From: a virus | Strand: one strand, 5' to 3' | Virus record (IMG/VR): IMGVR_UViG_3300028536_000002 | Span: 1 to 56,400 of that record | Length of the DNA stretch: 56,400 bases | Shown here: positions 4,279 to 54,403 of the stretch, in pieces | How positions within the stretch are numbered: position 1 is the first letter of the stretch | Layout: every line of letters starts with the position of its first letter | The notes under the pieces: model-generated | What the model saw: only the letters and a program-made list of their open reading frames with translations | What the model was told of the DNA's origin: nothing | Database searches by the model: none | Position numbers and translations under genes: made by a program

Positions 4279-4289
4279 CGTGCCTCCTC

Positions 4290-26544: not shown

Positions 26545-26897
26545 GCGTTCCCCCTTCGTGTTCTCGGGAGCGTAACCCCGGCTTGATCAGCCCAGACGTG
26601 AACGATCAGGTCAGTCTCACCGGGTGTGGGGCGCCGGCCGTAGGTCCGGCCGGCCCAGACACCCTGCGCGAGCACCCCGAGCTGCTTGCGCAGGATCGCG
26701 CATTCGGCCAGCGCGGTGCACTCGAACAGGCAGATCGCCCTGGCAGCGGCACGACGATGCAGCCCCGCGTCGTGGGACTCGTGGTCGACGTCGAGATCCC
26801 ACCGCGCCGGGTCGGGGGTGCAGGGCAGCGAGTCGAACGGCCGGCCGGCGTGGTCGAGCAGGGGCGGGCTGATGAAGGACACCGGACGCGGGCTCAT
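26490..26897 (-). CDS. whiB: WhiB-like transcription factor
   Basis: ATG 26897 in an ATGA overlap with the RusA stop. It has four Cys (PCTPDP..ICLFECTALAEC) followed by GVWAGRT, cf. the WhiB G[VI]WGG turn. The Cys spacing is slightly atypical. Confidence 0.6.
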   Translation of the reverse strand: MSPRPVSFISPPLLDHAGRPFDSLPCTPDPARWDLDVDHESHDAGLHRRAAARAICLFECTALAECAILRKQLGVLAQGVWAGRTYGRRPTPGETDLIVHVWADQAGVTLPRTRRGNAWHKGAAHVAARMATSIE

Positions 26898-27733
26898 CGC
26901 GTCTCCAGGGACGTGCGCACCACCAGCCACGTCGCAGGCCCCTTGGCCTTGTCGGGCTCGTGGAGCACCGGCGGCGACCAGGACACGTACCGGGCGTCGT
27001 CCCCGGCGAGCAGACCTACCCACCCGGAGCGGACGTCGGGCTGATGGAACGCGTCGATCATCGGCTTGAGCGTCGCCACCAGGTTGTCGACGTCGCGGAG
27101 CTGGCGGGTCTTGGGCCGGTAGTGCATCTCGATGTGGGCGTGGCGCATCGGCGGAATGTCGGCGTCGCGGAGCGCCTGCCGGGTGAGGGCCTTGACCTTC
27201 TCCACCTTGCTGGCGTGGGCCATGTAGTTGGTGGTGCGGTCGTTCAGCGACAGCAGCGGCTTGCCGTCCTTGAACGGGATCGGCACGCGCCACTCGGCGA
27301 TCAGCTCGCGGGGGTCGGGCTGCCCGGTCAGGTGGGCGAACGCGATCCAGTACGGGCACGGCTCGCCCTGATGCTTCGCTGCGTGCTGCGCGGTGGCGCC
27401 GAGCGCGGCGTGGGGGCACAGCGCCAGCAGCGCGTCGGCTTGCTCGCTCGTGTGCATCAGCGCGGCCTGGACGATCTGCTGCATGGCGATCGGGTAGGGC
27501 TCGGCCGCAGCGTTCATCGCCTCGAATAGGCCAGCCTCGTAGGTGCCGGCCGGGATCGGCTCGCCGTACTTGACCCCGCCACGCACGGCGGGTGGCACCT
27601 CGGGCAGCGAATGCCCCGGGCCGTCGCTCCAGACCACGCCAGCCGGTGCGCACCAGCCGGACGCCATGCGCATCTCCTGCTCGTCCAGGGCGTGCTGGAG
27701 CGCCTTCGGGGGCACCCAGCCCGGGGCGCTCAC
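26894..27733 (-). CDS. rusA: RusA-like Holliday-junction resolvase with N-terminal extension
   Basis: GTG 27733 in a GTGA overlap. The C-terminal half (LSLNDRTTNYMAHASKVEKVK..YRPKTRQLRDVDNLVATLKPMIDAF) matches the RusA D-x-D-N..K...D motif. Confidence 0.65.
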   Translation of the reverse strand: MSAPGWVPPKALQHALDEQEMRMASGWCAPAGVVWSDGPGHSLPEVPPAVRGGVKYGEPIPAGTYEAGLFEAMNAAAEPYPIAMQQIVQAALMHTSEQADALLALCPHAALGATAQHAAKHQGEPCPYWIAFAHLTGQPDPRELIAEWRVPIPFKDGKPLLSLNDRTTNYMAHASKVEKVKALTRQALRDADIPPMRHAHIEMHYRPKTRQLRDVDNLVATLKPMIDAFHQPDVRSGWVGLLAGDDARYVSWSPPVLHEPDKAKGPATWLVVRTSLETR

Positions 27734-28068
27734 TGCGGCACCGCCGTCAGGACGTTCAGCGGGTTCGGGCCTTCGTAGCCCCAGCGGCATGCCTTGCACC
27801 GCACGCCGATCAGCTCGACGGGCTTGGCCTCGTCCAGGTCGCGGTCGGTCCACTCGTCGGTCATCGGGTCGACCTCGGGCACGGTCGCGACGTCGACCTT
27901 GAACACGGCGGCCACCAGACGGTTGACCGTGGCCCGCTCGACGAGGACCAGGTCGTCGCCGGAGTGGCAGTTCGGGCAGCCCAGGGGATGCTCGGCCCCG
28001 GCGTGGCGGACGGTGTGCTCGATGGGCTTCGGGCCGCTTTGCCCGGCGTGTGCGGCTGGCACGGTCAT
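27730..28068 (-). CDS. Zinc-ribbon protein (112 aa)
   Basis: ATG 28068 behind the conserved leader; CPNCH ... CKACRW forms two CxxC pairs. Confidence 0.55.
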   Translation of the reverse strand: MTVPAAHAGQSGPKPIEHTVRHAGAEHPLGCPNCHSGDDLVLVERATVNRLVAAVFKVDVATVPEVDPMTDEWTDRDLDEAKPVELIGVRCKACRWGYEGPNPLNVLTAVPQ

Positions 28069-32824: not shown

Positions 32825-33045
32825 CAGTTCTCCTCCGTTCCGAAGCCGGCCAGCGACGTGACCTCGATCGTCAGCCATGCGGACCGGCCGTCGGCGGCGA
32901 CCTTCGCGCCGAGCAGCTTGCCCTTGGCAGTGGGCACCACGTGCAGCGACGCCAGGATCTGGACGTCCTGGCCGATGTGGTCGGCGTACGCGTCGGGGTG
33001 CAGCACAGTGTCGCCCGGGGCGGGTTGGCGGATGTTGACGCGCAT
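32824..33045 (-). CDS. Hypothetical protein (73 aa)
   Basis: Track ORF; TGATG overlaps at both ends. Confidence 0.5.
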   Translation of the reverse strand: MRVNIRQPAPGDTVLHPDAYADHIGQDVQILASLHVVPTAKGKLLGAKVAADGRSAWLTIEVTSLAGFGTEEN

Positions 33046-33608
33046 CAGCCCCGGCCGCCATCGCTCGGCTTGGGCTGTGGGCGCCCGGCACGGCGCTGGA
33101 GCCGGAGCCGGCCGTGGTCGTCCATGTAGGTCGCAGCGAACGTCAGCATCGCCCGGATCACCTCGGCACGCGTCTGGCCGACCTGCCCGATGCGGCGGTC
33201 AAGCTCGGCGATGCCCGAGCGGGAGATCCGCACTGTGACGTTGACCCGGTCGTCGTCCTTGGGTGGTGACATGGTGCCGACGATAGCCGCTGAGTCTGCA
33301 AGCGCAAGACCGTTGTCAGCGGCGTCGCGCTTGCGCCGGAATTCAGCGCCGGTCATGTGGAGGCCCTCGGCGGCGGCCTCGGCCGGGTGGGCGCCGACCC
33401 AGTCGTGGCAGCGGCGGCACAGCCAGACCTGGAGGTCCACGCGGGCCGCCGAGTCGGCCTGAGAGCGCCGCACGATCTCGTGCAGGTCATCGGCCGCGTT
33501 CCCGCAGATCGCCTGCCGAGCACACGCTGGGTGCCCATGCTCCCGGTCCCGGACGTTGCTGCGGCGACGAGCCAGCGTCCGGGCGCGTTTCGGGGAGACA
33601 GGGCGCAT
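33045..33608 (-). CDS. HNH-type nuclease fused to a C-terminal ribbon-helix-helix domain
   Basis: N-terminus: CARQAICGNAADDLHEIVRRSQ..LCRRCHDW, an HNH beta-beta-alpha-metal pattern. C-terminus: RVNVTVRISRSGIAELDRRIGQVGQTRAEVIRAMLTFA, an RHH. Confidence 0.55.
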   Translation of the reverse strand: MRPVSPKRARTLARRRSNVRDREHGHPACARQAICGNAADDLHEIVRRSQADSAARVDLQVWLCRRCHDWVGAHPAEAAAEGLHMTGAEFRRKRDAADNGLALADSAAIVGTMSPPKDDDRVNVTVRISRSGIAELDRRIGQVGQTRAEVIRAMLTFAATYMDDHGRLRLQRRAGRPQPKPSDGGRG

Positions 33609-37260: not shown

Positions 37261-37629
37261 TCAGGTCTCCTCGGGTGGGGCCGGCGGCATCGGGCCGTCG
37301 GGTCGGTAGGTGAAGCCGGTGCCCTGGTCGACGATCACCTCTACCTCGACCAGGCTCGCGGTGAACTGGTAGAACACGCCGAACAGGTGCTCAGCGATCG
37401 CAGCGCCGGAGGCGGGGAACGGCAGCGTGTCGGACAGGTTCACCCCCTCCATGTAGCTGGCCAGCCAGTAGTCGATCTCGGCGGTCGGCGAGATGTCGCC
37501 GTTGCTGGCGTCGAAGCGGGCCGTGACGTCGAAGGTGTGGCCGTGTAGGCGGCCCTCGGGGTCGGTGCGGGGCCGGTTGTCCAGGGCATGGATGGCGGCG
37601 AACCGGGCGTGGTGGGACAGGATGATCAA
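37261..37629 (-). CDS. QueD / 6-pyruvoyl-tetrahydropterin-synthase-fold protein (atypical: no catalytic Cys)
   Basis: TTG 37629 with GGAGGA 5 nt upstream. ARFAAIHALDNRPRTDPEGRLHGHTFDVTARF aligns with E. coli QueD FEAAHRL..KCGRLHGHSF, but Cys is replaced by Glu. VEVEVIVDQGTGFTYR aligns with the C-terminal strand. Confidence 0.5.
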   Translation of the reverse strand: MIILSHHARFAAIHALDNRPRTDPEGRLHGHTFDVTARFDASNGDISPTAEIDYWLASYMEGVNLSDTLPFPASGAAIAEHLFGVFYQFTASLVEVEVIVDQGTGFTYRPDGPMPPAPPEET

Positions 37630-37652
37630 GGCGCTCCTCCTCGGGATGGGTA

Positions 37653-37739: not shown

Positions 37740-38180
37740 TCAGGGACGCTCGTTCCAGGTCTCCACCTCGAACGGGTCGTACTCGTGTGCGGGGCACAGG
37801 TCGGCGAACGCGCCCAACTCGCACAGCTCGTCGCAGCCGGGGAACTCGCAGTACGTCTCCGGCGTGTAGGCGTCAGGCTCGTCGGCCTGCTCGGCGAAGT
37901 GACCGGCCGCGCCGCAGTGCTTGCAGGCGCTCAGGGCCTCGGCGTGCGCGGCCTCGATCAGGTCCAGCTCCTCGCTCGTGCGGAACGGGTGCCGGTTGTC
38001 GCGGCCCTTCACGCCTGCCTCGACGAGCTGGGTGATGTCGCGTCCGCAGTCGCGGCACACGCCGTGCCGGTGGCCGTAGAGGGCGTCGGGCTGGCTGATG
38101 TCCCAGCCGGTGCTGACGCTGCGGAGGTAGGTCAGCTCGTGGCAGTGGGTGAAGGCTGTCGATGTGAGCGTCGAGGTCAC
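37740..38180 (-). CDS. Cys/His-rich (multi-CxxC) protein, apparently monocistronic
   Basis: GTG 38180 behind the leader CCCCACCCAAGGGAG. THCHE, CRDC, CKHC, CEFPGCDELCELGAFADLC. Confidence 0.55.
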   Translation of the reverse strand: MTSTLTSTAFTHCHELTYLRSVSTGWDISQPDALYGHRHGVCRDCGRDITQLVEAGVKGRDNRHPFRTSEELDLIEAAHAEALSACKHCGAAGHFAEQADEPDAYTPETYCEFPGCDELCELGAFADLCPAHEYDPFEVETWNERP

Positions 38181-38247
38181 GGCGTGCTCCCTTGGGTGGG
38201 GTGTCTGGTCTACCCAGACCATATCTGACGAGTCAAGTGCGGCACAA
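38181..38247 (-). promoter_or_regulatory. Promoter/operator/leader cassette
   Basis: In - sense: TTGTGC (38247-38242), 18 nt, TATGGT (38223-38218). The -10 overlaps GTCTGG-N5-CCAGAC (38219-38203). Then ACCCCACCCAAGGGAG and a GTG start. It overlaps the 3' end of the kinase gene. Confidence 0.6.
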
Positions 38248-38793
38248 CAGGCTCACCGGCACGCCACGCTTGCGGAGCAGAGCGAACACGGTCGCGGCCA
38301 TCGGCTCCGCGCCGTGGTGGGACAGATCGAGGGTCGCTGCCCCGAAGCGGGCCGCTAGCCGCGCGGCCTTGCTGCCCCGGCCCTGCACCCACGATTCGTT
38401 CTGGAGGCGCGTACCGGCCTCCTCGGCTCGGTGGCGGCGGCGCCAGGCGACAGTGCCAGGGTTCGCGATGGCGTGGAGCAGGTGCAGCCGATACCCGGCG
38501 GACTCGGCGACGCCGAAGAACTTCGCGTAGGCCAGCCGGTCGCCCTCGGCGAGCACCAGCGGCGCCGGCATCGACGCAATCCAGGCTTCCGCTGACCGGG
38601 CGATCGACATGCCTAGGGTGTCGGTGCCGCCGAACGGCTCCCGCTTGCGGCCGGGCATGACCAGGTCGCCGCGTCGCAGGTGCGGGATCGGCTCGAAGTG
38701 CTCGGCGAAGTCGTCCATTCCGCCGACCATCGCGGTCACGAGCGTGGTTTTGCCGACGCCTGGCGGGCCGATCAGGTAGACCAGGTCAGCCAC
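38233..38793 (-). CDS. P-loop kinase-like protein (candidate 5-hmdU DNA kinase)
   Basis: GTG 38793; Walker A LIGPPGVGKTT at residues 7-17; 186 aa. It is the last gene of the coupled modification cluster. Confidence 0.5.
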   Translation of the reverse strand: MADLVYLIGPPGVGKTTLVTAMVGGMDDFAEHFEPIPHLRRGDLVMPGRKREPFGGTDTLGMSIARSAEAWIASMPAPLVLAEGDRLAYAKFFGVAESAGYRLHLLHAIANPGTVAWRRRHRAEEAGTRLQNESWVQGRGSKAARLAARFGAATLDLSHHGAEPMAATVFALLRKRGVPVSLLCRT

Positions 38794-39655
38794 GGCGGCG
38801 CTCCACTTCCACGAGACGGTCCACGATCTCCGGCGCCCAGCGGACGCCCGAGTGCCACAGCGGCGGCACCGACCGCATGTCCAGCGTGCCGGTGTCGCCC
38901 TCGACGGGGACCGGGCGCCAGCCCTGCGTCAGCTCGCCGACGCCGATGACCGGGACGGACGGCCACAGCTCGCGCCACGCGTCCAGCCACCGGTCGAAGT
39001 GCTTGCCCGCGTCCAGACGGCGTGGCCTGTCCTTGGCCTGCGCGATCAGCGACGAGCCGGCCCACCACCAGCCCGGCCGGGTCGGGATGACGTACGCGTA
39101 CGCGATCTGGAACCGGCCCCGGCGCGAGTAGAACGCTGCCCGATACGGCAGGCCCTGGAGGGCGTCGGGGACGTCGAGCTGCACCTCGGCCGACCAGCCC
39201 CAGCGCAGAGCCCCGCACCGGTCGCCGAAGCCGTGAGCGACCAGCACCCGATGCCCCGGGCGGGCACGGTCGATGCGGCGGGCGACGAAGCGCAGCCGGG
39301 CGGCCTGGACGATCGCCGGGACGTCCACAGCGATGCCCGCGCTGTGGCCGACTCGGTACGGCCCGAGGTCGTCCTGGCGGTAGCGGCCCTCGTGGGGGGG
39401 CTGCTTGTGGGTGTAGACGTAGCTGACCGGGCGGACCATGCCGGCCGGGAACAGCTTGGATTCGTGCCAGTTCCACCACAGGTCGAGGTTGCGCGCACTG
39501 CGCTCATCTCCGGCGGGGTAGACCATGCCGGTGCTGGCCGGCCACGCCCGAACCTCGACGTCGGTGTCGTGCCAGGTGAAGGCGATGCCCTTACGTTCCA
39601 GGGCGAACGCGGTCGCGGCGCCGAACCACCCCATGCCCTCCAGGTGAAGCGTCAC
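38786..39655 (-). CDS. Rossmann-fold flavoprotein-like (DAO/glycine-oxidase-type; candidate flavin-dependent lyase)
   Basis: GTG 39655 in a GTGA overlap. The N-terminal beta-alpha-beta VTLHLEGMGWFGAATAFALERKGIAFTWHD has GxGxxG plus an acidic residue at the end of beta-2. Confidence 0.45.
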   Translation of the reverse strand: MTLHLEGMGWFGAATAFALERKGIAFTWHDTDVEVRAWPASTGMVYPAGDERSARNLDLWWNWHESKLFPAGMVRPVSYVYTHKQPPHEGRYRQDDLGPYRVGHSAGIAVDVPAIVQAARLRFVARRIDRARPGHRVLVAHGFGDRCGALRWGWSAEVQLDVPDALQGLPYRAAFYSRRGRFQIAYAYVIPTRPGWWWAGSSLIAQAKDRPRRLDAGKHFDRWLDAWRELWPSVPVIGVGELTQGWRPVPVEGDTGTLDMRSVPPLWHSGVRWAPEIVDRLVEVERRRG

Positions 39656-40587
39656 GCTGCGCTCACCCCGTCGAGCCACCACAGCAGCCGGCCCGTGTCG
39701 CGGTAGCGGCGGTTCAGCTCCTTGCGCACGCCCGGCCAGCCGGAGATCTCGCCGAGCAGGTGCGGCTCGAAGCTGCGGCCCCGGGCGATCAGCGCCACCC
39801 CGTCCAGGCGCGTCGGGGACTTGCGGAGCTGATCCAGCATCTGATCAACATCGTGGCCAACGTAATAGCGGCCCTCGGTGACGGCGTGCCAGTCGCACAA
39901 GGTGGTCTCGGCCGTCTCCAGGGTGGCGGACAGCCCGGCGTCGTGCAGATGCGCAAGGTGATCCAGGGACAGCCTGTCCAGCTCGGCCAGGGTGTTCCGG
40001 TCGTTGCCGGTCGGCACGTCGGGGTAGAGCACGGCGAGGCCGTGGCGGGGGCCGGTGCTGTTCGCGTGGCCCATGTCCGGCGCGGCCAGCGGGAAGCCGT
40101 TCACGGCGGCCAGCATCTCCCCCGTCTTGAAGGCGGCCCACCGGCCGTTCCCGTGGACCCGGGTCACCGCGCTCGATACAGCGCTCCACCGGTCTTGGCT
40201 GCTGCCGGAGCCATACGCGGCGCCACCGAGCCAGCGGCTGATGCCGCCGTAGGAGTCGATCGTGTCGACCAGGGAGCGCATGTGCGCCCGGAGCTGGCGG
40301 TGATCGCGGTGCGCCCGGCGCTCCGTCCCGGTCGGCAGGACCAGGTCGGCCGGGGGCATCGCGACCTTGCCGTCGGTGGCCTCGAACGCGGCCAGCGCGC
40401 TCCCGAGGTGGTAGTAGGCGACGTGCAGGAACGTCAGCCACAGCCGGGCCTCACCGTCGAGCTCTAGCAGCTCGCCGACCTCACGCAGCACCGGGTAGAC
40501 CGGGTCGACGTCACCGGACTTGAGCTGCCAGTGGTGGAACGTGCAGTAGTCGGCCCACCCGGTGCCCTCGGTCCAGGAGCCGGTCAC
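39652..40587 (-). CDS. 311-aa helical protein, candidate aGPT-Pplase / amino-acid:DNA transferase
   Basis: GTG 40587 in a GTGA overlap. I can name no motif. The call rests on size, helical composition and position between a TET/JBP gene and the flavoprotein/kinase genes. Confidence 0.3.
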   Translation of the reverse strand: MTGSWTEGTGWADYCTFHHWQLKSGDVDPVYPVLREVGELLELDGEARLWLTFLHVAYYHLGSALAAFEATDGKVAMPPADLVLPTGTERRAHRDHRQLRAHMRSLVDTIDSYGGISRWLGGAAYGSGSSQDRWSAVSSAVTRVHGNGRWAAFKTGEMLAAVNGFPLAAPDMGHANSTGPRHGLAVLYPDVPTGNDRNTLAELDRLSLDHLAHLHDAGLSATLETAETTLCDWHAVTEGRYYVGHDVDQMLDQLRKSPTRLDGVALIARGRSFEPHLLGEISGWPGVRKELNRRYRDTGRLLWWLDGVSAA

Positions 40588-40772
40588 ATCAGCTCCAGAT
40601 CTTCGGGGCGGGTCGCCTGCGTGCCACCCCGGCCGTACGCCACGAACACGTAGCGGTCGTTGACCGAGCTGATCACGCCGACCTCCGTGCGGTCGGTCGC
40701 CCCGGCGATGGGCGGGTGGTAGCGCACCTTGTGCCCGATCGCCGCGCGGGCCTGCGCCAGCGTCATCGCCAT
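40584..40772 (-). CDS. Small beta-rich protein (62 aa; SH3/Tudor-like?)
   Basis: ATG 40772 or 40766 (the latter in an ATGA overlap with the TET/JBP stop); KVRYHPPIAG..EVGVISSVNDRYVFVAYG. Confidence 0.45.
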   Translation of the reverse strand: MAMTLAQARAAIGHKVRYHPPIAGATDRTEVGVISSVNDRYVFVAYGRGGTQATRPEDLELM

Positions 40773-41632
40773 GACTTCTCCCCACTCACGACAGCCCGTT
40801 GGTTCTCCTCGCGCTCGGTGCGTTTGGCCTGCCCCTGGGCGAGCTCTGCCGCGAACGTCGCGCAGTCCTTCATGCCTCGCAGGGCGTAGTACACGATCGA
40901 ATAGCGGTAGCCCTTCGGCTGCCCGGCGGCGGCCGGGCGGATCCTGGTCAGCGGCGTCACCCCGTGGACCAGGCGGAAGCCGTTGAAGAACACGACGTAG
41001 CCGGAGCGGCACGACAGGGTGACGTCGTACTCGGGGATGTGCAGCCCCCCACCGGACACGCCGGAGCGGACCACGGGCATCGCCGACCAGGCGTCGAAGT
41101 TCATGCTGTCGCGGTGGTACGGGAGCTGAGCCGTGTGGTTGACGACGCCGGAGGTCCAGTGGCTGTGCGGGGCCATCCGCCAGTCGTCGTCGATCTCGCC
41201 GATCGTCAGGACGTCGCGGTCAGCGATGACCGGGCTGATCGTGCGGAGCATGCCCCCCAGGTGCAGCGACAGCATCGCGAGCACGCCGTGCACCTCGGGC
41301 ATATCCCGCGCGAGCGAGGTGATCCGGCACGAGTCGTGCAGCATCGTCGGCCGGCGCGGCGCCATCCCGAACGTCCGCGACAGCGAGCGGAGCTTGCCGG
41401 CGCGGCCCAGACCGGTGAACCCGTCGATCGCAAGAACAGCCTCGGTCAGGCGCGCCGTCCAGTCCGGTGGCAGCGGCAGGTAGGCGATGACGGGCTCGCC
41501 CAGGTCGGGGTCGGTGATGACCGTCGGGCCGTTGATGACCTGCCCGCGTGTCTCGGGCACCATCTGCCCGACCAGGGCGTCGGCCTGGTCCTTGGACAGG
41601 GCGCGGCGGAACTCCACCTGGGCGTCAGGCAT
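40763..41632 (-). CDS. TET/JBP-family 2-oxoglutarate/Fe(II) dioxygenase
   Basis: 289 aa. LPYHRDS supplies the HxD, GGGLHIPEYD follows, FNGFRLVHGVTPL supplies the distal His, and YRYSIVYYA supplies the RxS. The order and spacing match the TET/JBP double-stranded beta-helix. Confidence 0.7.
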   Translation of the reverse strand: MPDAQVEFRRALSKDQADALVGQMVPETRGQVINGPTVITDPDLGEPVIAYLPLPPDWTARLTEAVLAIDGFTGLGRAGKLRSLSRTFGMAPRRPTMLHDSCRITSLARDMPEVHGVLAMLSLHLGGMLRTISPVIADRDVLTIGEIDDDWRMAPHSHWTSGVVNHTAQLPYHRDSMNFDAWSAMPVVRSGVSGGGLHIPEYDVTLSCRSGYVVFFNGFRLVHGVTPLTRIRPAAAGQPKGYRYSIVYYALRGMKDCATFAAELAQGQAKRTEREENQRAVVSGEKSWR

Positions 41633-42398
41633 CGGACTCGCCCTCGGCAGCCTCGGGCTCAGCGGCGGCGGTCTCGCCGTCGCCCTCAGCCTGCCCAGCC
41701 GGTGGGGTCCGCCCGGACACGGCGGCCACGACCGCGATCAGCGCCTCGGCGTTCGAGGGCAGCTCGTGGGCGGTGCGGTAGTCGTTCAGCCGCTCGACCA
41801 CCCACGCGAACAAGTCGGTGGTGTACTCGAAGTACAGCGACCGGGTCGCCTTGCCCTCGTAGCGTTCGCCGAGCGCGGCCATGCCCGCGTGGGGCTGCTG
41901 GCCGGGGAACTCCTGCTCGCCGTACTGGCTGCCCCCGGCTTCGGCCTTCGCGGCGGCGGCCAAGATCTCGTCCAGCTCCACCTGGTCGAAGCCGGCCGCG
42001 TCGAGCAGTGAGGCGTTGAACCCGTCGAGCTGTTCGGCCAGCACCGCCTGTTCCCACTCGGCCAGCTCGCCGGAGCGGTTGTCGGCGATGGCGTAGGCGC
42101 GGGCCTCCTCGGTGGTGCCCGGGAACCGGGTCACGTGGACCTCAGCGTAGGGCGCCGGCTGCTCCCGCCCGAGGGCTTCGGTGTTCAGCTCGCGCATCGC
42201 CTCGACGGTGCCGTTGCCGGCGATCGCCATGTACCGGCCGTTCACCACGAGCGGCTTGCGCTGCCCGAACCGGGTGAGGCTAGCCCGGATGACGTCGAGG
42301 TTGCGGCGGTTGTGCTTGCGGGCGTTGCGCGGGTCGATCTTGATCTTCTCGATCGGCACGGTCTCTACGGGCAGCTCAGTGTGGTCAGGCTTCGGCAT
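41625..42398 (-). CDS. ParB/Srx-like nuclease-domain protein
   Basis: ATG 42398 with GAGGAGA upstream. IEKIKIDPRNARKH and IAGNGTVEAM match ParB N-domain boxes. The C-terminal tail is acidic. Confidence 0.7.
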   Translation of the reverse strand: MPKPDHTELPVETVPIEKIKIDPRNARKHNRRNLDVIRASLTRFGQRKPLVVNGRYMAIAGNGTVEAMRELNTEALGREQPAPYAEVHVTRFPGTTEEARAYAIADNRSGELAEWEQAVLAEQLDGFNASLLDAAGFDQVELDEILAAAAKAEAGGSQYGEQEFPGQQPHAGMAALGERYEGKATRSLYFEYTTDLFAWVVERLNDYRTAHELPSNAEALIAVVAAVSGRTPPAGQAEGDGETAAAEPEAAEGESDA

Positions 42399-42717
42399 GC
42401 GGGGTCTCCTCGGGGATGGGGGCCAGGATCAGGTCGGCCAGCGCGGCGAGCTGGCGGGCGAGCTGCACCGGTGAGGGCATCGGCTCGGCGTCGAGGTTGG
42501 CCGCGATCGCCCGGCACCGGTTGCGGACGTCAGGTGAGGCGGTCAGGTGCAGCCCGTAGTTGCAGCCGCACCCGTTCGGGTCGCGCACCGGCGCCGGGTC
42601 GGCGGCCACCTGCCAGCGCCCGTCGGCCCAGACCAGCCGAAGGGACACAGTGGTCGACCAGGCGTGGCCCTCGGGCCACAGGTCCGGTTCGGGCTCGGCC
42701 GGCTTGCGCGGGGTCAC
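42385..42717 (-). CDS. Hypothetical protein (110 aa)
   Basis: GTG 42717 in a GTGA overlap with the 34-codon ORF; strong codon bias; contains NGCGCNYG. Confidence 0.5.
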   Translation of the reverse strand: MTPRKPAEPEPDLWPEGHAWSTTVSLRLVWADGRWQVAADPAPVRDPNGCGCNYGLHLTASPDVRNRCRAIAANLDAEPMPSPVQLARQLAALADLILAPIPEETPHAEA

Positions 42718-42818
42718 CGTAGGCCCGGATCGCCCAGCTCGGCGACCAGGGCATCCCAGATCGGCAGGCCCGTGCCGACGCGGCGGTGGCGGGGGAACAG
42801 CTTGCGGAACAGGCTCAT
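42714..42818 (-). CDS. 34-codon ORF behind a conserved leader
   Basis: ATG 42818 is 6 nt after AAGGAGA of the leader CCCCCACCCAAGGAGATCTG. MSLFRKLFPRHRRVGTGLPIWDALVAELGDPGLR; high codon-3 G/C. Confidence 0.45.
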   Translation of the reverse strand: MSLFRKLFPRHRRVGTGLPIWDALVAELGDPGLR

Positions 42819-43261
42819 CAGATCTCCTTGGGTGGGGGCTTGCGAGCGGCGTAGCGCCGTCGATCGTTGACACGTTGACAGGCCCGGCAATTGCCGTTGA
42901 CGGTGCGGCCGAGCAAGGCCACGAGATGGCCGTTTCGGCAGTGCGAGAGGACAACACGCGGCCGGCGGATAGCGCGGCGCAGATTCTCGCCGTGAGTCAC
43001 AGCCTCCAGATGCTCGACGCGGATACAGAGCGTGCGCCGGCACAGATGATCCGGTTCGAGCCCGGGAGGGATGACGCCGTGCTCTAGCTCGAACGCAACG
43101 CGGTGCGCTGGCCGCAAGCGGCCAGCGATCTTGATCTGGCCGTAGCGAGCACCGCCCCGCGAAGGCACCGTTTTGCCGTGCCAGATCCGGCACTCACCTT
43201 CGGTGTGCGACAACCGCGCAAGCCGATCTGATACCGGCGTGCCGGTAGGGCTACGCCTCAT
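42818..43261 (-). CDS. HNH homing-type endonuclease (HNH_3-like)
   Basis: CRIWHGKT..GYGQIKIAGRLRPAHRVAFELEHGVIPPGLEPDHLCRRTLCIRVEHLEAVTHGENL. It is a paralogue of 54404..54844. Confidence 0.75.
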   Translation of the reverse strand: MRRSPTGTPVSDRLARLSHTEGECRIWHGKTVPSRGGARYGQIKIAGRLRPAHRVAFELEHGVIPPGLEPDHLCRRTLCIRVEHLEAVTHGENLRRAIRRPRVVLSHCRNGHLVALLGRTVNGNCRACQRVNDRRRYAARKPPPKEI

Positions 43262-43612: not shown

Positions 43613-44791
43613 TCACGCGCTCGCTGCGACGAACTCCATCGCCTCGATGGCCTTGGCGTCCATCTCGTGGGCGACGTCGGCGTCGTCGATCGTCTGGCTG
43701 TAGGAGGTGAACGCCTGGGCGACGCCACCGGCGGTGACCTGCCCGCCCTTGATGAAGTGGTCCAGGATGCCGTCGATGTGCGACTGCGGGAAGCCCAGAC
43801 GCTTCACGACGGCGGTGATGGTGTCCTGCGGCTTGGCGACCGGGGCGCCAGCGCTGGCCTCCAGGCGGGCCACTGCACCGTTCAGGTACTCCGGGGCCAG
43901 GAAGCTCGCCACGGCGTCGCGGGTCTTGGCTACGACCAGCTCGACGTTCTTGGTGGCCGTGTCCTGGCTCCAGCGGATGACGCCGTCGTCGAGCTTCGAG
44001 CCGACGTGGACGGCGCGGATCGCGTCGCGGGTCACGGTCATGCCGTTGGTGCAGACCTGCACGACGATCTGCGGGGCCAGGCTCCAGGCGCCGTCGCCGA
44101 CCTCGGAGTTACGCAGGACCAGCCCGGCCGACACGACGGGCAGCTTGTCGCCGGACTCGCCGGAGAACGGGGAGCGGTAGCCCTTGAGCAGCTCGGGGGC
44201 CATCGCGGTGATCTCGGGCGCCCGGAGCTGGACGTACATGCGGCGGTCGGTCAGGTCGCAGCGACCGACCTCGACCTTGACCCCGGCCTGCTGCACGCCG
44301 TCGAGGACCGCGACCAGGGCGTCGAGGTTGTCCATGACGCCGTAGCCGTTGGACAGCAGCGCCCGGACCACGCCGGTGCCGCCGTCGTCGTCGCGGAACG
44401 CGCGGACCAGGAACGACCGCGAGTCAGGCTCGGCGATGACCTCGGTGCCGGCGTCCAGGCGGGTGACCGACCGGCCGTGGAGCCAGCCGTTGACGTTGGC
44501 GTCGTACAGGTCGGGGCGCGTCTCACGGAGCTTGCGGACGTAGGCCAGCGGGATGCCGAGCTTGTCGGCGACGCCCTCGTCGAACACGACGGTCGGGCGG
44601 TACACGCCGTCGGTGGTGGTGACGCCGTCGGGGGTGAGGATCTGCTCGGCGCCCCGGACGTGGATCAGAGCGTTGCGGGAGCGGAGCGCGGTCGCCGGGG
44701 CGACGACGTCGAGCTTGCGGGCGTGCTGGTCGCGGAGCAGGGCGACCATGTCGTCGAGCGTCGCGTTGCGGGCGGTGGTGGTGATGGTCAT
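43613..44791 (-). CDS. DUF932-family protein
   Basis: 392 aa. LLSNGYGVMDNLD, LVLRNSEVGDGAWSL and QVCTNGM match the DUF932 (phage/plasmid-like) signature. Confidence 0.7.
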   Translation of the reverse strand: MTITTTARNATLDDMVALLRDQHARKLDVVAPATALRSRNALIHVRGAEQILTPDGVTTTDGVYRPTVVFDEGVADKLGIPLAYVRKLRETRPDLYDANVNGWLHGRSVTRLDAGTEVIAEPDSRSFLVRAFRDDDGGTGVVRALLSNGYGVMDNLDALVAVLDGVQQAGVKVEVGRCDLTDRRMYVQLRAPEITAMAPELLKGYRSPFSGESGDKLPVVSAGLVLRNSEVGDGAWSLAPQIVVQVCTNGMTVTRDAIRAVHVGSKLDDGVIRWSQDTATKNVELVVAKTRDAVASFLAPEYLNGAVARLEASAGAPVAKPQDTITAVVKRLGFPQSHIDGILDHFIKGGQVTAGGVAQAFTSYSQTIDDADVAHEMDAKAIEAMEFVAASA

Positions 44792-48614: not shown

Positions 48615-48836
48615 CTAGCCGGTGAATTGCCACACCCGGCAGGACACGGCAGGGAACGTGGGGTGGGCCTCGAACCGGTCCGTCGGCACGTAGAGCATCG
48701 TCTTGCCGACATGCTCGGTGGAGTGGCGTTCCTGCTCGGCGTCGGCCTCGAAGTAACACCAGCCGTCCCGATAGCCCCCTCGGAAGAGAACTACGGGACG
48801 GCCGATGTCCCAGCCTGGCTTAGCTGTTGTCGCCAT
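48615..48836 (-). CDS. Hypothetical protein (73 aa)
   Basis: Track ORF; overlaps the RecT 3' end by 17 nt. Confidence 0.5.
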   Translation of the reverse strand: MATTAKPGWDIGRPVVLFRGGYRDGWCYFEADAEQERHSTEHVGKTMLYVPTDRFEAHPTFPAVSCRVWQFTG

Positions 48837-50082
48837 CCGGGTCGTCCCCGAGGTCGATCTGCCCGGCGTGCTCGGCCTCGAACCGCTCGGCCTCGTAGGC
48901 GGCGTCGATTGCGGCCTCCTGGTCCGCGTCGGACAGCGCCGTGGCCTCCGGGCCGGCGACAGGTGCTGCGGCCGGCTCGGGCTCGCTCGGGGCCGCCACC
49001 GGCGGGTTCCACGCCAGTGCCGCCTTGAGCTCGTCGGTGGTGGCGAACTCGATCGGGATGGTGGCGCCGTGCTGGATCACCTTGAGCACCGACGCGAGCT
49101 GCCCGCCGTGCTTGTCGATGCCGGCGTCGCGGAGCCCCTTCCACAGGGCCGTCTGCCGGGCGCGAGCGCGGCCCTGCTCATCGTCGGCTGTCCCGGCTGG
49201 CGGGACAGCTTGTGTCGGCTCCTGGGACGCCTCGGCCGCGTCGCTGGCCTGCTCGGCTTCCATCTGCTCGGCCGTCGGCGGTTCGGTGCCGCCGGTGCCG
49301 CCCGGCTCGCCGTCGAACTGGTCCAGCGCGTCCGGGGACAGGTCGACGCGGACCGACTCGTCCGACGCGATGGCCTGCGCGAGCAGCGTCGACTTCGGCA
49401 GGAACTTGAACATCGCCCGCACGCAGGACTTGCGGGCCATCGCGTCGTAGTCCGTCGCCCACGGCGACCGGGCGTTGCGCCCGGACTGCGAGCGGAGGCG
49501 GATCGTCTCGACGTCGTCGCGGCCCATCACGTGGAACACCCGGCCGCCGTTCACCATCCGCGCCACGGCGTAGTAGAGGATCGGCTCGCCCTTCTCGGCG
49601 TCGAACCGGGGCCGGTGCACGAGCTTGTCCTCCAGCCCGTACTCGATCTCGTAGTCCTCACCGGCGAAGATCGTGTGGGCCTTGATCTCGGCGACGAGCT
49701 GGGACCGCTGCGCCAGCTCGATCATGCCCTGATACCCGAGGATCCACTGCGCCTCGGTCACGCCCCGCTGGCTGTTCTTGAACGGCAACACCCACCCGTG
49801 CCCGAGCGCGGGCACGTTGGGTCGGAGCCCGAGCTGCGCGGCGGTCATCAGCGCACCGAACAGGGTCGGCTTGGTGCAGGCGAGCAACTGCGGGACGTTG
49901 CGGACGGCGGTGATCGCGTCGCGGATGAGCTGGGTGGCTTCCATGCCGCGTGGCATCGCAAGCTGGAACTGCTCCTGCATCAGCATCAGCTCGGCCTGGA
50001 GGTTGACGACGCGGTCGACCTCCTTGCCGGGCTTGAGCCCGGCGGCCTCGCGGGCTGCGGTGGACGTGGTCGGTTCGGTCAT
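48820..50082 (-). CDS. recT: RecT-family single-strand annealing protein with long acidic C-terminal extension
   Basis: LGLRPNVPALGHGWVLPFKN..WILGYQGMIELAQRS..IKAHTIFAGEDYE matches the RecT core. ATG 50082 lies behind the leader CCCCACCCCAAGGAGAA. Confidence 0.8.
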   Translation of the reverse strand: MTEPTTSTAAREAAGLKPGKEVDRVVNLQAELMLMQEQFQLAMPRGMEATQLIRDAITAVRNVPQLLACTKPTLFGALMTAAQLGLRPNVPALGHGWVLPFKNSQRGVTEAQWILGYQGMIELAQRSQLVAEIKAHTIFAGEDYEIEYGLEDKLVHRPRFDAEKGEPILYYAVARMVNGGRVFHVMGRDDVETIRLRSQSGRNARSPWATDYDAMARKSCVRAMFKFLPKSTLLAQAIASDESVRVDLSPDALDQFDGEPGGTGGTEPPTAEQMEAEQASDAAEASQEPTQAVPPAGTADDEQGRARARQTALWKGLRDAGIDKHGGQLASVLKVIQHGATIPIEFATTDELKAALAWNPPVAAPSEPEPAAAPVAGPEATALSDADQEAAIDAAYEAERFEAEHAGQIDLGDDPDGDNS

Positions 50083-50390: not shown

Positions 50391-50599
50391 CGGCCGAAGA
50401 TCTTGCGGTGCCGGCGCCGGTAGAACTCCGGCTCACGCTCCCCGGTCTCGACGTCCTTCGTGGTGAGGCGGACCTCGGGCGGGGTCTCGTCATCGGCCAC
50501 GACGTCATCGGTCGGCAACGGCTCGAACGCGCCGGACTTGGGCCGGGCGCGCAGCAGCCGGTCGACCTCTCGTTCGCGGCGAGACAGGTCGCCGGTCAC
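50387..50599 (-). CDS. Hypothetical protein (70 aa)
   Basis: GTG 50599 in a GTGA overlap with the exonuclease stop. Confidence 0.45.
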   Translation of the reverse strand: MTGDLSRREREVDRLLRARPKSGAFEPLPTDDVVADDETPPEVRLTTKDVETGEREPEFYRRRHRKIFGR

Positions 50600-51654
50600 C
50601 CCGACCACGTCCAGGTCCGTCGGCGCCGGAGCTCGGCCAGCGCCTCCGGGTGCTCCTCGATCAGCGCGGCCAGCCCCTTGTTGTCGATCTTCCGGGCGGG
50701 CTGCGAGTAGTCCTCGAACCACTCGGGGTGGCGGCGTTGCCACGCCTGGTCCGCGCCGTCGATCTGCTTGCCCGGCTTCCACGACGCGATCGGCGTTCCG
50801 TCGGGCCACGCCAGCTCGCTCGCGTTGCCGGCGCGGGTCTGGAGCAGCGCGACGAGCCCGTCGTACTCGGCCTTGAGCGCGGCCAGCTCGACGTAGAGCT
50901 TGCGCGCCCGTCGCACCGCCTCGGCGTCCTCATCGGGCAGCAGCGCGACCGCGTCGACCGGGTCGCGGTAGAGCTGCTTGGGCAGCCCCGTCGACTTCTC
51001 CGACGGCGCCGGGGGCACGTCGGCCACGATGTGCTTGTCCCACCAGTGGTCAGCCCGGGTGAACATCGCCCGGATCAGCTCCTCGTCGCGGTCCATCCGC
51101 CGGTGCTGCACCCGGAACCGGGGGCCGAGCGCCACGAAGTGGATGTGGCCGCGTCCGGTGACGGCGAGCTGCCACTGCCCCTGGAACTGGAACCCGGTCG
51201 GGACGGTGTCGTTGCCGTCATCGTCGAACCACTCATCGAAGCTGGACTGCACCTTGGCCTCGATCAGGCACTTGCCGGCGGGGCAGATCGACAGCGAGTC
51301 GACGGTGGCCCCGCCGTTCGGGAACGCCCGGGACCGCATCAGGCCCTGCCTGCGGGTGGCGACCGGGAACGGCGCCTGCCGCTCAGCCCAGAACTTGATG
51401 ATCTCCCGCTCGAACGCCCGGCCCCGGGCCATCGACTCGGTCTCCGGCGACTCGTCGAGGCGGCCTGTCTTGTCGGCCCACAGACCGAATTCGTCCTTGT
51501 AGCCGTGGCCAAAGAGCACCGCGACGTCAGAGGCGCCGAGTAGCTTCCTGCGTTCGGCGCGCCACACGTCCAGGTCGACGTCCACGGAGCAGACGAGCGA
51601 GCCTCCTGGGCAGCTCCAGGGCCGGGCGATGCCGGCCAGGTCAGGATGGGTCAT
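50596..51654 (-). CDS. YqaJ-like (lambda Exo-type) recombination exonuclease with C-terminal extension
   Basis: ATG 51654 behind the leader. LLGASDVAVLFGHGY..FGLWADKTG, GRAFEREII and CLIEAKV (an ExK) match the YqaJ/PD-(D/E)xK signature. It pairs with the downstream RecT. Confidence 0.75.
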   Translation of the reverse strand: MTHPDLAGIARPWSCPGGSLVCSVDVDLDVWRAERRKLLGASDVAVLFGHGYKDEFGLWADKTGRLDESPETESMARGRAFEREIIKFWAERQAPFPVATRRQGLMRSRAFPNGGATVDSLSICPAGKCLIEAKVQSSFDEWFDDDGNDTVPTGFQFQGQWQLAVTGRGHIHFVALGPRFRVQHRRMDRDEELIRAMFTRADHWWDKHIVADVPPAPSEKSTGLPKQLYRDPVDAVALLPDEDAEAVRRARKLYVELAALKAEYDGLVALLQTRAGNASELAWPDGTPIASWKPGKQIDGADQAWQRRHPEWFEDYSQPARKIDNKGLAALIEEHPEALAELRRRRTWTWSG

Positions 51655-51704
51655 TGCGATCTCCCTTGGGTTGGGGGTTCGAGTATCGCGTGCAGCGCAG
51701 ACAA
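51655..51704 (-). promoter_or_regulatory. Degenerate cassette copy
   Basis: In - sense: TTGTCTGC...GATACT (51687-51682), then CCCCCAACCCAAGGGAG and the ATG. Only one half-site is present, and the hexamer spacing is not canonical. Confidence 0.3.
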
Positions 51705-51715
51705 TTTTGCGGGCG

Positions 51716-51997
51716 TTAGCGGCCCCGGGTCGCGGCATAGATGCACAGCGCACCGAAGGCGATGACGCACCAGATGCCGAGCACGCCGAGTGCCCAGTGC
51801 CAGATCGTCCACCCGTGCGGCGGCGTGGGGTCGGCCTCGGCGGGGTCGTAGCGCCATCGGGTGATCACCAGCCTCTCGGTGCAGGGCCACTCGCCCTCGG
51901 GCGCCCAGCCGCACTGCGGCGGCGTGGGCGGCCCGAGGGGTGCGGGTTCGACGCGGCCCCGGTGGACGGGGCAGCCATAGATGGCGTAGAAGCTCAC
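51716..51997 (-). CDS. Small protein with C-terminal TM helix (93 aa)
   Basis: Track ORF; WALGVLGIWCVIAFGALCIYAA. Confidence 0.5.
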   Translation of the reverse strand: MSFYAIYGCPVHRGRVEPAPLGPPTPPQCGWAPEGEWPCTERLVITRWRYDPAEADPTPPHGWTIWHWALGVLGIWCVIAFGALCIYAATRGR

Positions 51998-54338: not shown

Positions 54339-54403
54339 TTGACGAGCCGATCTTGATACCGCCAGTCTGTGCCTCCCAGACACGTCCCCACCCAGGAGAC
54401 CCG
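54339..54403 (+). promoter_or_regulatory. Rightward copy of the operator/leader
   Basis: In + sense: TTGACG (54339-54344) ... GATACC ... GTCTGT-N5-CCAGAC (54365-54381), CCCCACCCAGGAGAC, then ATG 54404. The hexamer spacing is not canonical. Confidence 0.4.

Follow-up and report, generated by a model that had tools for sequence, protein, structure and literature searches.

Positions 38233-42398 of this 56,400-nt stretch of viral DNA (hereafter the window) carry six overlapping genes on the - strand, and raise the question of whether these encode a single pathway that hypermodifies thymidine starting from a dioxygenase. The initial annotation had proposed such an operon, and we consider it very probable that the region is a dioxygenase-initiated thymidine hypermodification cassette. 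All six of the consecutive ORFs counted at the outset are present; five belong to enzyme-cassette families and one is a small ORF.

41625..42398, - strand: ParB-like protein, 257 aa, ATG start, TGA stop
40763..41632, - strand: predicted TET/JBP-family dioxygenase (5mYOX), 289 aa, ATG start, TGA stop
40584..40772, - strand: small ORF, 62 aa, TGA stop
39652..40587, - strand: predicted amino-acid:DNA transferase (AADT/ADDT), 311 aa, GTG start, TGA stop
38786..39655, - strand: predicted FAD amine-oxidase-fold protein, 289 aa, GTG start, TGA stop
38233..38793, - strand: Ploopntkinase3 P-loop kinase, 186 aa, GTG start, TGA stop

Junctions had been described as GTGA/ATGA overlaps throughout. GTGA overlaps do join the small ORF to ADDT and ADDT to the oxidase, but the ParB/TET and oxidase/kinase junctions each overlap by 8 nt, and the TET/small ORF overlap of 10 nt is reduced to 4 nt (ATGA) only with an alternative ATG at 40766. 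The small ORF matches phrog_18065 (function unknown, E=1.3e-9). Its homologues occupy the same position in IMG/VR loci L008-L012 only, and it was not found in the Gordonia and Mycobacterium cassettes. Because it is kept only in the closest relatives, its membership in the pathway is doubtful.

The dioxygenase and its ParB-like neighbor

The product of 40763..41632 carries the TET/JBP metal and 2OG residues where they had first been noticed, in LPYHRDS at 170 (H173, D175), GGGLHIP at 194, FRLVHGVTPL at 219 (H223) and YRYSIVYY at 242 (R243), and HxD...H...R is intact. Among 44-48 dioxygenase homologues H173, D175, H223, R243 and C257 are invariant, and both the alignment and the AF2 model (pLDDT 87.3) place a conserved C-terminal helix, residues 257-282, after C257. 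The top 26 Foldseek PDB matches are all TET-family proteins (NgTET1, CcTet, TET2 and CMD1; E 2e-13 to 5e-8), and the top 3 PDB sequence matches of the family profile are NgTET1 and TET2, with H223 and R243 aligned. The fold thus agrees with a TET_JBP assignment, but the Pfam Tet_JBP match fell below threshold (E=1.6e-4, 21.4 bits versus a cutoff of 34.9); PF12851 is present in most close homologues. The protein also matches PHROG 6059 (E=2.5e-82), whose label, 'queuine tRNA-ribosyltransferase', we rejected as a misnomer contradicted by the TET fold. As modeled, 40763..41632 encodes a TET/JBP-fold dioxygenase, predicted to act after replication on thymine to give 5-hydroxymethyluracil in DNA.

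The neighboring 257-aa protein starts with a nucleotide-binding domain of the ParB/Spo0J type, and a second conserved domain of ~60 aa lies at its C-terminus; no HTH DNA-binding domain was detected. Pfam and NCBIfam gave no match. Its description as ParB-like is borne out by PHROG ParB-like partition protein families, which match 41625..42398 at E=4e-30 and 4e-23, and by a profile of 16 cassette-linked ParB homologues, which matches Spo0J (1vz0, E=5e-12), Noc and ParB over the N-terminal ~100 positions only. ParB activation of T-dioxygenase has been shown experimentally for metavirome homologues (O'Toole et al. 2026, PNAS, PMC13229309), and by analogy the ParB-like protein is probably an activator of the adjacent T-dioxygenase rather than a bystander. 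The 5mYOX clade C1 dioxygenases and cognate ParB proteins of that study resemble the window pair in having an extension past the last conserved Cys, in lacking a neighboring C5-methyltransferase and in being linked to a P-loop kinase and AADT. The window pair lies outside the tested set, and is likened to 5mYOX176, 177 and 185 by description, not by sequence; the study characterizes the T-to-5hmU step only, and the flavoenzyme is absent from it.

Predicted kinase, transferase and FAD oxidase

The Walker A motif first noted in 38233..38793, GPPGVGKTT, lies at residues 9-17, and the protein scores above cutoff for Pfam Ploopntkinase3 (PF18751; E=4e-25, 88.8 bits versus 27). A profile of cassette kinases finds the characterized kinase gp49 of Pseudomonas phage PaMx11 at E=4e-32 (pairwise BLASTP E 0.001). 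We predict a P-loop kinase of the 5-hmdU DNA kinase type, which would phosphorylate 5hmU in DNA to 5-phosphomethyl-dU.

The 311-aa helical protein encoded by 39652..40587, initially left unassigned and guessed to be a transferase, matches Pfam ADDT (PF18724; E=6e-23, 82 bits versus a cutoff of 26), a family formerly named aGPT-Pplase2 (aGPT-Pplase clade 2). The solved AADT structure 25qc is matched at E=0.0018, and identity to PaMx11 gp46 is 25% over 263 aa. All of the gp46 catalytic residues are kept. With roles taken from PMC11472151, gp46 C247, E243, T244, W146 and K150 correspond to C231, E227, T228, W150 and K154, and gp46 D24, Y51, E92 and D262 to D28, Y59, E89 and D246; each of these catalytic and glycine-contacting positions is kept by 35-40 of the 40 family members. 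By sequence, then, 39652..40587 is assigned as an amino-acid:DNA transferase (AADT/ADDT), predicted to exchange the phosphate of 5-phosphomethyl-dU for an amino acid. The amino acid is probably glycine; since the glycine contacts are kept across nearly all family members, they may not tell which amino acid is used.

The GxGxxG motif of 38786..39655, GMGWFG, spans residues 7-12 of a 289-aa protein, and GMGWFG...WHDTD and HSGVRWAP are conserved in the family. Of the initial proposal of a flavoprotein, the fold stood: the AF2 model (pLDDT 96.8, pTM 0.93) matches D-amino-acid oxidase (1c0k, E=3e-13), iminodiacetate oxidase (6pxs, TM 0.70), and sarcosine and glycine oxidases among Foldseek PDB matches, and in the BFVD library it matches Phelemich gp4, an 'oxidoreductase' (TM 0.64/0.70). 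The profile check was negative, as neither Pfam DAO nor any other Pfam, PHROG or NCBIfam model matched the family. The gene occupies the cassette position of PaMx11 gp47 (NGTO), and both proteins have the GR2 amine-oxidase fold class, but they are separate in sequence, with alignment limited to the FAD motif. Because of this, and of the missing DAO match, substrate and reaction are read from fold and gene context only. The model indicates a compact FAD-dependent protein of amine-oxidase fold, whose predicted role is oxidative trimming of the amino-acid adduct to 5-aminomethyl-dU. Iminodiacetate oxidase cleaves a secondary-amine glycine derivative, similar to the proposed substrate.

Gene linkage and related systems

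Linkage was surveyed in 42 IMG/VR viral loci carrying the oxidase family of the window. ADDT adjoins the oxidase in 40 of them and the kinase does so in 41. Of the same loci, 20 have TET+ParB, 12 have a thymidylate-synthase-like gene and none has both; ParB accompanies TET in 20 of 21 TET-bearing loci, the sole exception being cut by a contig end. Since TET+ParB and the thymidylate-synthase-like gene never co-occur, the proposal that the dioxygenase replaces a dUMP hydroxymethylase is supported. The cassette genes are found together again in cultured phages of Gordonia, Rhodococcus and Mycobacterium, in a Streptomyces prophage and in dozens of IMG/VR contigs. The five remain clustered across unrelated phage backbones and at least four different gene orders, a linkage far beyond chance. 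Two loci, L040 and L042, have a GNAT gene between oxidase and kinase (ADDT-oxidase-GNAT-kinase) and ParB-TET close by, and in P0105 the oxidase C-terminus is fused to a GNAT acetyltransferase, an arrangement that mirrors 5-NmdU acetylation in PaMx11 (PMC8989533).

Pfam/PHROGs scans covered essentially all window ORFs above ~170 aa, many of which match no family, and report detectable homologues only. Within that scope no thymidylate-synthase-like, DNA polymerase, C5-methyltransferase or glycosyltransferase gene was detected in the 56-kb window, in line with the initial annotation.

PaMx11 has the same core order as the window, AADT, flavin oxidase (~287 aa) and kinase, in gp46-gp47-(gp48)-gp49, and makes 5-NmdU and 5-AcNmdU (Lee et al., NAR 2021/2022, PMC8989533; structures in PMC11472151). 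It differs in generating 5hmdU before replication, through the thymidylate-synthase-like dUMP hydroxymethylase gp51 instead of ParB+TET, and in having its own DNA polymerase and an acetyltransferase, gp48. Cultured actinophages with related cassettes include Rhodococcus phage Tonitrus (PMC11955845), Gordonia phages CaiB and MakoManhole, and Mycobacterium phages Phelemich and Reprobate; none of them has a reported product. All five window families (ParB-like, TET-like, aGPT-Pplase2, kinase and the ~290-aa protein) are found in the Gordonia phages and Tonitrus at 42-51% identity, with the kinase before the oxidase, unlike in the window. The gene order of Phelemich is that of the window, with ADDT-oxidase-kinase as gp3-gp4-gp5, but Phelemich and Kozie carry an NGTO-like (Pfam DAO-type) oxidase in place of the window family. 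In these cultured actinophages the cassette lies at the left genome end beside terminase, whereas here it lies between recombination and packaging modules. Trypanosomatid JBP1/2 likewise combine post-replicative TET/JBP hydroxylation of thymine in DNA with derivatization of 5hmU. Base J is made by glucosylation, in contrast to the phosphorylation and amino-acid transfer proposed here, and JBPs carry a J-binding domain and need no ParB partner.

Proposed pathway and alternatives

In the pathway that we propose, the ParB-like protein, whose gene lies immediately upstream, would activate the dioxygenase, which would convert the 5-methyl of some thymines in finished DNA to 5-hydroxymethyluracil, a step shown for homologous metavirome ParB/5mYOX pairs (PMC13229309). 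The kinase would then phosphorylate the hydroxymethyl group to give 5-phosphomethyl-dU, as shown for the PaMx11, M6 and ViI kinases (PMC8989533). Cys231 of the transferase would attack C6, expelling phosphate, and the amino acid would be joined through its amine by the mechanism shown for gp46 (PMC11472151), most likely installing glycine to form N-alpha-glycinylthymidine. Finally, the FAD enzyme may oxidize the C-alpha-N bond of the adduct, with imine hydrolysis releasing 5-aminomethyl-2'-deoxyuridine and glyoxylate. This chemistry was shown for gp47 (PMC8989533); for the window enzyme, fold, gene position and linked acetyltransferases in relatives point to it. Because the window encodes no acetyltransferase, the expected end product would be the free amine, 5-NmdU.

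That the same cassette yields another end product is rather unlikely. The appended group could be serine, alanine, glutamate or a polyamine, and the FAD enzyme could deaminate or oxidize it or oxidize the other C-N bond; the phage would then have a so far undescribed form of hypermodified thymidine in its DNA. AADT specificity is not readable from sequence, as ViI gp247 uses serine while M6 gp51 and PaMx11 gp46 use glycine (PMC8989533), and the near-invariance of the glycine-contacting residues, the separate sequence family of the oxidase and the many amines used by its fold relatives all leave room for this. Against it, any N-linked alpha-amino acid oxidized at C-alpha-N would give the same 5-NmdU, the GNATs beside or fused to the oxidase family, as in PaMx11, point to a primary amine, and the gene order is identical to that of PaMx11.

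Cytosine could instead be the target, with the dioxygenase acting on 5-methylcytosine made by a host methyltransferase, as in phage TET clades A and B. The closest solved structures in the TET/JBP family are 5mC dioxygenases, and some phage T-dioxygenases also oxidize 5mC in vitro (PMC13229309). We regard this as very improbable: that no C5-methyltransferase or glycosyltransferase gene was detected in the window speaks against it, the ParB pairing and C-terminal extension fit the ParB-dependent T-dioxygenase subclass (PMC13229309), and the kinase and AADT families downstream were characterized on 5hmdU (PMC8989533). Moreover, loci that are otherwise equivalent carry either TET+ParB or a dUMP-hydroxymethylase-type gene, a pattern that is intelligible only if 5hmU comes from both. 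Scarcely credible is a neighborhood without a shared pathway, made up of a partition protein or nuclease, a small terminase or nucleotide kinase, and an oxidase and 'transferase' of unrelated metabolism. Homologue names such as 'terminase small subunit', 'adenylate kinase', 'queuine tRNA-ribosyltransferase' and 'ParB-like nuclease' suggest it, and the cassette adjoins a terminase gene in many cultured phages. These names are contradicted by the above-threshold ADDT and Ploopntkinase3 matches and by the TET fold. The large terminase of the window lies elsewhere, at 23602-25128, and the retention of five genes through rearrangement and the occurrence of the ADDT-oxidase-kinase core with thymidylate-synthase-like genes also argue for one pathway.

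The initial reading, dioxygenase to kinase to transferase to flavoenzyme, is thus supported, each functional guess having been borne out; its view that such pathways were only computationally predicted is out of date (PMC8989533, PMC13229309, PMC11955845). TET_JBP-linked thymidine-hypermodification clusters without dUMP hydroxymethylase were described by Lee et al. 2021 (PMC8989533), and in 2025 the five-gene set of Tonitrus was described as a system for thymidine hypermodification (PMC11955845). The window is therefore a further member of a described cassette type, although the searchable literature holds no experiment on this phage or on any cultured phage with the exact cassette, and no measured end product for the TET-initiated version. 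We favor, with reasonable confidence, a full post-replicative thymidine hypermodification pathway to 5-NmdU in an actinophage of siphovirus type that relies on host enzymes for replication, and hold 5-NmdU specifically as the product to be an evenly balanced proposition. The modification likely falls on a subset of thymines, and its benefit to the phage is likely protection from host restriction nucleases.

The cassette and its genomic setting

The window has a G+C content of 70% with nearly all genes on the minus strand, and it has the look of an almost complete actinophage genome of the siphovirus type. Metagenomic contigs of ~57.4 kb carry a dioxygenase 81% identical to that of the window in the same gene arrangement, so the 56.4-kb window is nearly a whole genome. 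Its modification genes and the principal features around them are as follows.

Cassette genes, in minus-strand order
41625-42398, -, ParB-like protein
40763-41632, -, TET/JBP-family Fe(II)/2OG dioxygenase
between dioxygenase and transferase genes, -, 62-aa small ORF
39652-40587, -, ADDT/AADT transferase, 311 aa
38786-39655, -, predicted FAD oxidase, 289 aa
38233-38793, -, kinase, 186 aa

Features outside the cassette, in minus-strand order
54353-54844, +, HNH endonuclease-like ORF
50596-51753, RecE-like exonuclease
48820-50082, RecT
43613-44791, DUF932-like protein
42818-43261, -, HNH endonuclease, just upstream of the modification operon
37740-38222, -, Cys-rich ORF (160 aa), directly downstream of the kinase; assigned to no family, with faint resemblance only to zinc-ribbon and Lar-family (restriction alleviation) proteins, E ~0.04
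37261-37644, -, ~127-aa ORF weakly resembling QueD/PTPS, two genes downstream of the kinase
33045-33608, -, HNH endonuclease-like ORF
26894-27853, RusA-like protein
23602-25128, large terminase
21287-22864, portal
17342-20938, -, MuF-domain protein (1198 aa), MuF domain at residues 166-279
15025-16836, major head protein
7585-9594, tape measure protein
1372-2172, -, collagen-repeat protein (Pfam Collagen E=2e-15), near the endolysin
200-1471, endolysin

Three HNH endonuclease-like ORFs, two of which share PHROG 826, thus occur in one 56-kb phage genome, and the MuF protein, located between portal and head genes, is unusually long.

The initial annotation described six consecutive genes joined by GTGA/ATGA overlaps. 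All six ORFs and their motifs were located where it placed them and the genes do adjoin, but the junctions are not uniform: the ParB-like and dioxygenase genes overlap by 8 nt, the dioxygenase gene and small ORF by 10 or 4 nt depending on start choice, the small ORF and transferase and the transferase and oxidase genes by 4 nt (GTGA), and the oxidase and kinase genes by 8 nt. The cassette genes are translationally coupled, though not everywhere via GTGA/ATGA. In a single-pass search the small ORF proved to be conserved in close relatives only; an iterated HMM gathered out-of-frame translations of TET genes and was discarded. All larger ORFs in the window, those in gaps left by the crude gene caller among them, were scanned with Pfam and PHROGs. 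No thymidylate synthase, DNA polymerase, C5-methyltransferase or glycosyltransferase turned up, in line with the gene content first reported.

Megablast of the 4.2-kb cassette region against 50,697 phage records gave no match, and relatives were reached at the protein level only. Between 36.5 and 45.5 kb, a scan for promoters and terminators gave nothing beyond shuffled expectation. ARAGORN called a tRNA-Gly(GCC) at 39298-39375 (+), antisense within the oxidase coding sequence; because Rfam, even at E<=1, matched neither a tRNA nor any other RNA family across 38000-42600, we take this call as a probable false positive in G+C-rich coding DNA.

The ~127-aa ORF falls just below the Pfam PF01242 cutoff (E=4e-4, 20.7 bits against 22.4), matches NCBIfam QueD at E=0.011 and contains the motif GRLHGHTFDV. 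It may represent a second, 7-deazaguanine-type DNA modification module accompanying the thymidine cassette. In a Streptomyces prophage with the same cassette, PTPS and GTP cyclohydrolase I genes (L007, 11807-12849) directly follow the ParB gene.

Assignment of the cassette proteins

The TET/JBP metal and 2OG residues that had been read from the dioxygenase sequence are borne out by conservation and by fold. The HxD...H iron triad and 2OG-binding Arg are present in order, and alignments of 44-48 homologues show no variation at H173, D175, H223, R243 or C257. With the AF2 model (pLDDT 87.3), Foldseek PDB ranks 1-26 were exclusively NgTET1, CcTet, TET2 and CMD1 (E 2e-13 to 5e-8), and AlkB-type enzymes first appeared at E ~1e-6, well after the TET family. 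A single-sequence PDB search found nothing significant and a family profile was needed; its three best PDB sequence matches were NgTET1 (two entries) and TET2, with H223 (distal His) and R243 (2OG Arg) aligned to their counterparts in these enzymes. Of the profile and fold check proposed initially, the TET fold and intact triad were thus recovered, but the Pfam Tet_JBP model (PF12851) stayed below threshold (E=1.6e-4, 21.4 bits against 34.9). Many phage 5mYOXs, as TET/JBP-family dioxygenases of this type are called, are missed by this model (PMC13229309), and most of the closest (45-81% identity) among the 832 homologues found carry a precomputed PF12851 match.

Invariant C257 is followed by 32 residues, including conserved A261, R271 and E275, with a helix modelled at 257-282. 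This tail corresponds to the C-terminal extension reported only in ParB-dependent phage T-dioxygenases (PMC13229309). As in that clade, C1, a ParB homologue is encoded by the adjoining gene. Tested members of the clade are 5mYOX176, 177, 185, 67 and 79; in E. coli, 25-35% of T was modified by a tested ParB-dependent dioxygenase that prefers NTR, the context given for 5mYOX176/ParB176 (PMC13229309). We infer that the substrate of the window enzyme is thymine rather than 5mC in DNA, because a C5-methyltransferase is absent and the downstream enzyme families are 5hmdU-specific.

The ParB-like assignment of the neighbouring gene likewise stands, although it too required a family profile: neither Pfam and NCBIfam nor the PDB gave a significant match with the single sequence. 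PHROG ParB-like families match it at E=4e-30, and a profile from 16 cassette-linked homologues matches Spo0J (1vz0, E=5e-12) as well as Noc and ParB. Only the N-terminal part, profile positions 10-124, matches these solved ParBs, and the alignment has a separate conserved C-terminal block of ~60 aa. [quoted passage not shown]

The 311-aa helical protein, originally left unassigned as a candidate transferase, belongs to the amino-acid:DNA transferases (Pfam ADDT, PF18724, E=6e-23, 82.2 bits against a cutoff of 26.2). It shows a weak but specific match to the solved AADT 25qc (E=0.0018) and 25% identity over 263 aa to gp46, the AADT of Pseudomonas phage PaMx11. In gp46, C247 is the nucleophile, E243 and T244 are metal ligands, and W146, K150 and D24 hold glycine (PMC11472151). 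The window counterparts C231, E227, T228, W150, K154 and D28, conserved in 35-40 members of a 40-sequence alignment, confirm the predicted catalytic competence of the transferase. The P-loop protein proposed as a 5hmU kinase is also recognized, by Pfam Ploopntkinase3 (PF18751, E=4e-25, 88.8 bits against a cutoff of 27); Walker A motif GPPGVGKTT lies at residues 9-17, and a profile built from the cassette kinases picks out PaMx11 gp49, a characterised 5-hmdU DNA kinase, at E=4e-32.

The 289-aa protein matched no Pfam, PHROGs or NCBIfam family, even at E<=10. Its ~105 homologues are of uniform length, all without Pfam annotation, and share an N-terminal dinucleotide-binding motif, hhHhEGMGWlG...FTWHDtD (GMGWFG...WHDTD in the window), and a C-terminal HSGVRWAP. 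The AF2 model (pLDDT 96.8, pTM 0.93) agrees with the flavoprotein fold suggested by the GxGxxG motif: the best PDB fold matches include D-amino-acid oxidase (E=3e-13), iminodiacetate oxidase (IdaA, TM 0.70), sarcosine oxidase and glycine oxidase, which together span E 3e-13 to 1e-9 with TM up to 0.70, and also N-methyltryptophan oxidase. All of these belong to the GR2 family of FAD enzymes, whose reaction is oxidation of the C-N bond in amino acids or N-substituted glycines. Both the two-domain GR2 amine-oxidase fold and the N-terminal Rossmann motif are present in the 289-aa protein, and a family profile searched against PDB sequences gave one marginal FAD-motif match, 6pxs. This unannotated ~290-aa family is thus, as modelled, a compact FAD amine oxidase.

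PaMx11 gp47 (NGTO) is likewise a GR2-family protein, of 286 aa, and converts N-alpha-glycinylthymidine to 5-aminomethyl-dU and glyoxylate (PMC8989533, PMC11472151). Membership of the 289-aa protein in the gp47 sequence family was considered and rejected: by BLASTP, profile-sequence and profile-profile (hhalign) comparison only the first ~35-54 residues, the FAD motif, align, and for this reason we claim only fold and positional analogy. Pfam DAO scores 57 bits with gp47 and 73 bits with gp3 of Microbacterium phage Kozie, and does not match the 289-aa protein even at E<=10. Among the best matches to its model in a viral structure library is gp4 of Mycobacterium phage Phelemich, a 262-aa 'oxidoreductase' (TM 0.64/0.70) that resembles gp47 weakly in sequence (E=1.6e-5). 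The gp4 gene lies between the AADT and kinase genes of a cassette, ParB-TET-AADT-X-kinase, otherwise identical to that of the window. Because a gp47 relative sits where the window family sits, this slot in the cassette is filled by compact GR2 oxidases from two or more sequence families.

Conservation of the cassette and sources of 5hmU

At 42-51% identity, the cassette is found in Gordonia phages (CaiB, MakoManhole and others), Rhodococcus phage Tonitrus and Mycobacterium phages Phelemich and Reprobate. The Kozie version lacks an identified ParB, and the Streptomyces prophage carries the cassette in yet another gene order. We retrieved 42 IMG/VR loci encoding the oxidase family and screened the ORFs in them with profiles that we built locally. 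ADDT (40/42) and kinase (41/42) adjoin the oxidase gene in nearly all of them, and this trio is the constant core.

The genes that would supply 5hmU vary around the core. TET and ParB occur together in 20 of the 42 loci, and ParB accompanies TET in 20 of the 21 that bear TET; three further short contigs have one of the two alone, with the partner cut off by the contig end. Twelve loci instead encode a homologue of the thymidylate-synthase-like dUMP hydroxymethylase, PaMx11 gp51 (Pfam Thymidylat_synt), and none encodes both TET+ParB and this homologue. Seven have neither within 7 kb, namely the short contigs L017, L029 and L051 and four contigs of 79-169 kb. Among these 42 loci, TET+ParB and the thymidylate-synthase-like gene are mutually exclusive 5hmU supply routes. 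Computationally, this exclusivity lends the strongest support to the proposal, already made from the sequence, that the dioxygenase with ParB replaces dUMP hydroxymethylase as the 5hmU source.

Two loci, L040 (GNAT at 3867-4298) and L042 (GNAT at 7864-8295), have the order of PaMx11 gp46-49, ADDT-oxidase-GNAT-kinase, with ParB-TET nearby. In the metagenomic protein P0105, the oxidase C-terminus is fused in frame to a GNAT domain. A profile search found no GNAT homologue in the window. PaMx11 acetylates its oxidase product, 5-NmdU (5-aminomethyl-dU), to 5-AcNmdU. By analogy, the gene order and fusion suggest that these relatives make an acetylated amine as well, and so point to a primary-amine oxidase product.

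Public annotation of the cassette families is systematically misleading. The TET-like dioxygenase is named 'queuine tRNA-ribosyltransferase' in RefSeq and phrog_6059, and the 5hmU kinase 'terminase small subunit' or 'adenylate kinase', so that the finding exposes widespread misannotation. Cluster B4 mycobacteriophages such as Prince have, after the 'thymidine hydroxylase' gene, one labelled 'DNA glycosylase' that nevertheless matches the ADDT profile at E=3e-59. The misleading labels were seen in phage records H19-H57, in Phelemich gp2 and gp5 (L005), and in gp4 of L003.

Proposed pathway and its significance

In the route we propose, the ParB-assisted dioxygenase would oxidise T to 5hmU in DNA, a reaction demonstrated for homologous ParB/5mYOX pairs (PMC13229309). 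The kinase would phosphorylate 5hmU to 5-PmdU, as demonstrated for its family (PMC8989533). The transferase, acting through Cys231, would then replace the phosphate with an amino acid, glycine or another, attached by its amine; this chemistry has been demonstrated for PaMx11 gp46 (PMC11472151), whose residues are conserved here. FAD-dependent oxidation and hydrolysis, demonstrated for PaMx11 gp47, would yield 5-aminomethyl-dU, a step suggested by the oxidase fold, its gene position and the GNAT linkage.

The transferred amino acid and the oxidase chemistry leave room for another product. Because they are conserved throughout the transferase family, the catalytic residues do not settle which amino acid is transferred, and it is the linked amine oxidase and the analogy with PaMx11 that point to glycine. 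An undescribed thymidine hypermodification, made with a different amino acid or by non-NGTO oxidase chemistry and perhaps placed only at defined sequence contexts set by ParB and the dioxygenase, as a sequence-specific, epigenetic-like mark and not for bulk protection, seems to us unlikely; the GNAT-bearing relatives are consistent with a primary amine, the product expected of the glycine route that we prefer.

The cassette is well supported and belongs to a known kind of system. Iyer, Aravind and colleagues are said to have predicted in 2013 the linkage of TET/JBP enzymes to kinases and aGPT-Pplases in phages. The pathway had been considered uncharacterised, which holds for its end product: our literature search found no modified nucleoside or final product reported for phages with TET-initiated cassettes, actinophages included. 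It no longer holds for the first step, since ParB-dependent oxidation has been shown (PMC13229309), and the same five genes have already been named a thymidine hypermodification system in phage Tonitrus (PMC11955845, 2025). Modestly new are the fold predicted for the unannotated oxidase family, the near-constant presence of AADT and kinase genes beside it, and the either/or pattern of TET+ParB versus thymidylate-synthase-like genes.

The window provides a clean, complete example of a TET-initiated cassette, a route whose first step was shown biochemically only recently. In its cultured relatives, CaiB and MakoManhole (Gordonia), Tonitrus (Rhodococcus) and Phelemich (Mycobacterium), the product is directly measurable. 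For a phage dependent on the host for replication and dTTP, replacing T ahead of replication would be difficult, and a dioxygenase route that acts afterwards would suit it. With TET-initiated hypermodification, a phage using the host polymerase and nucleotide pools can still decorate its DNA after replication.
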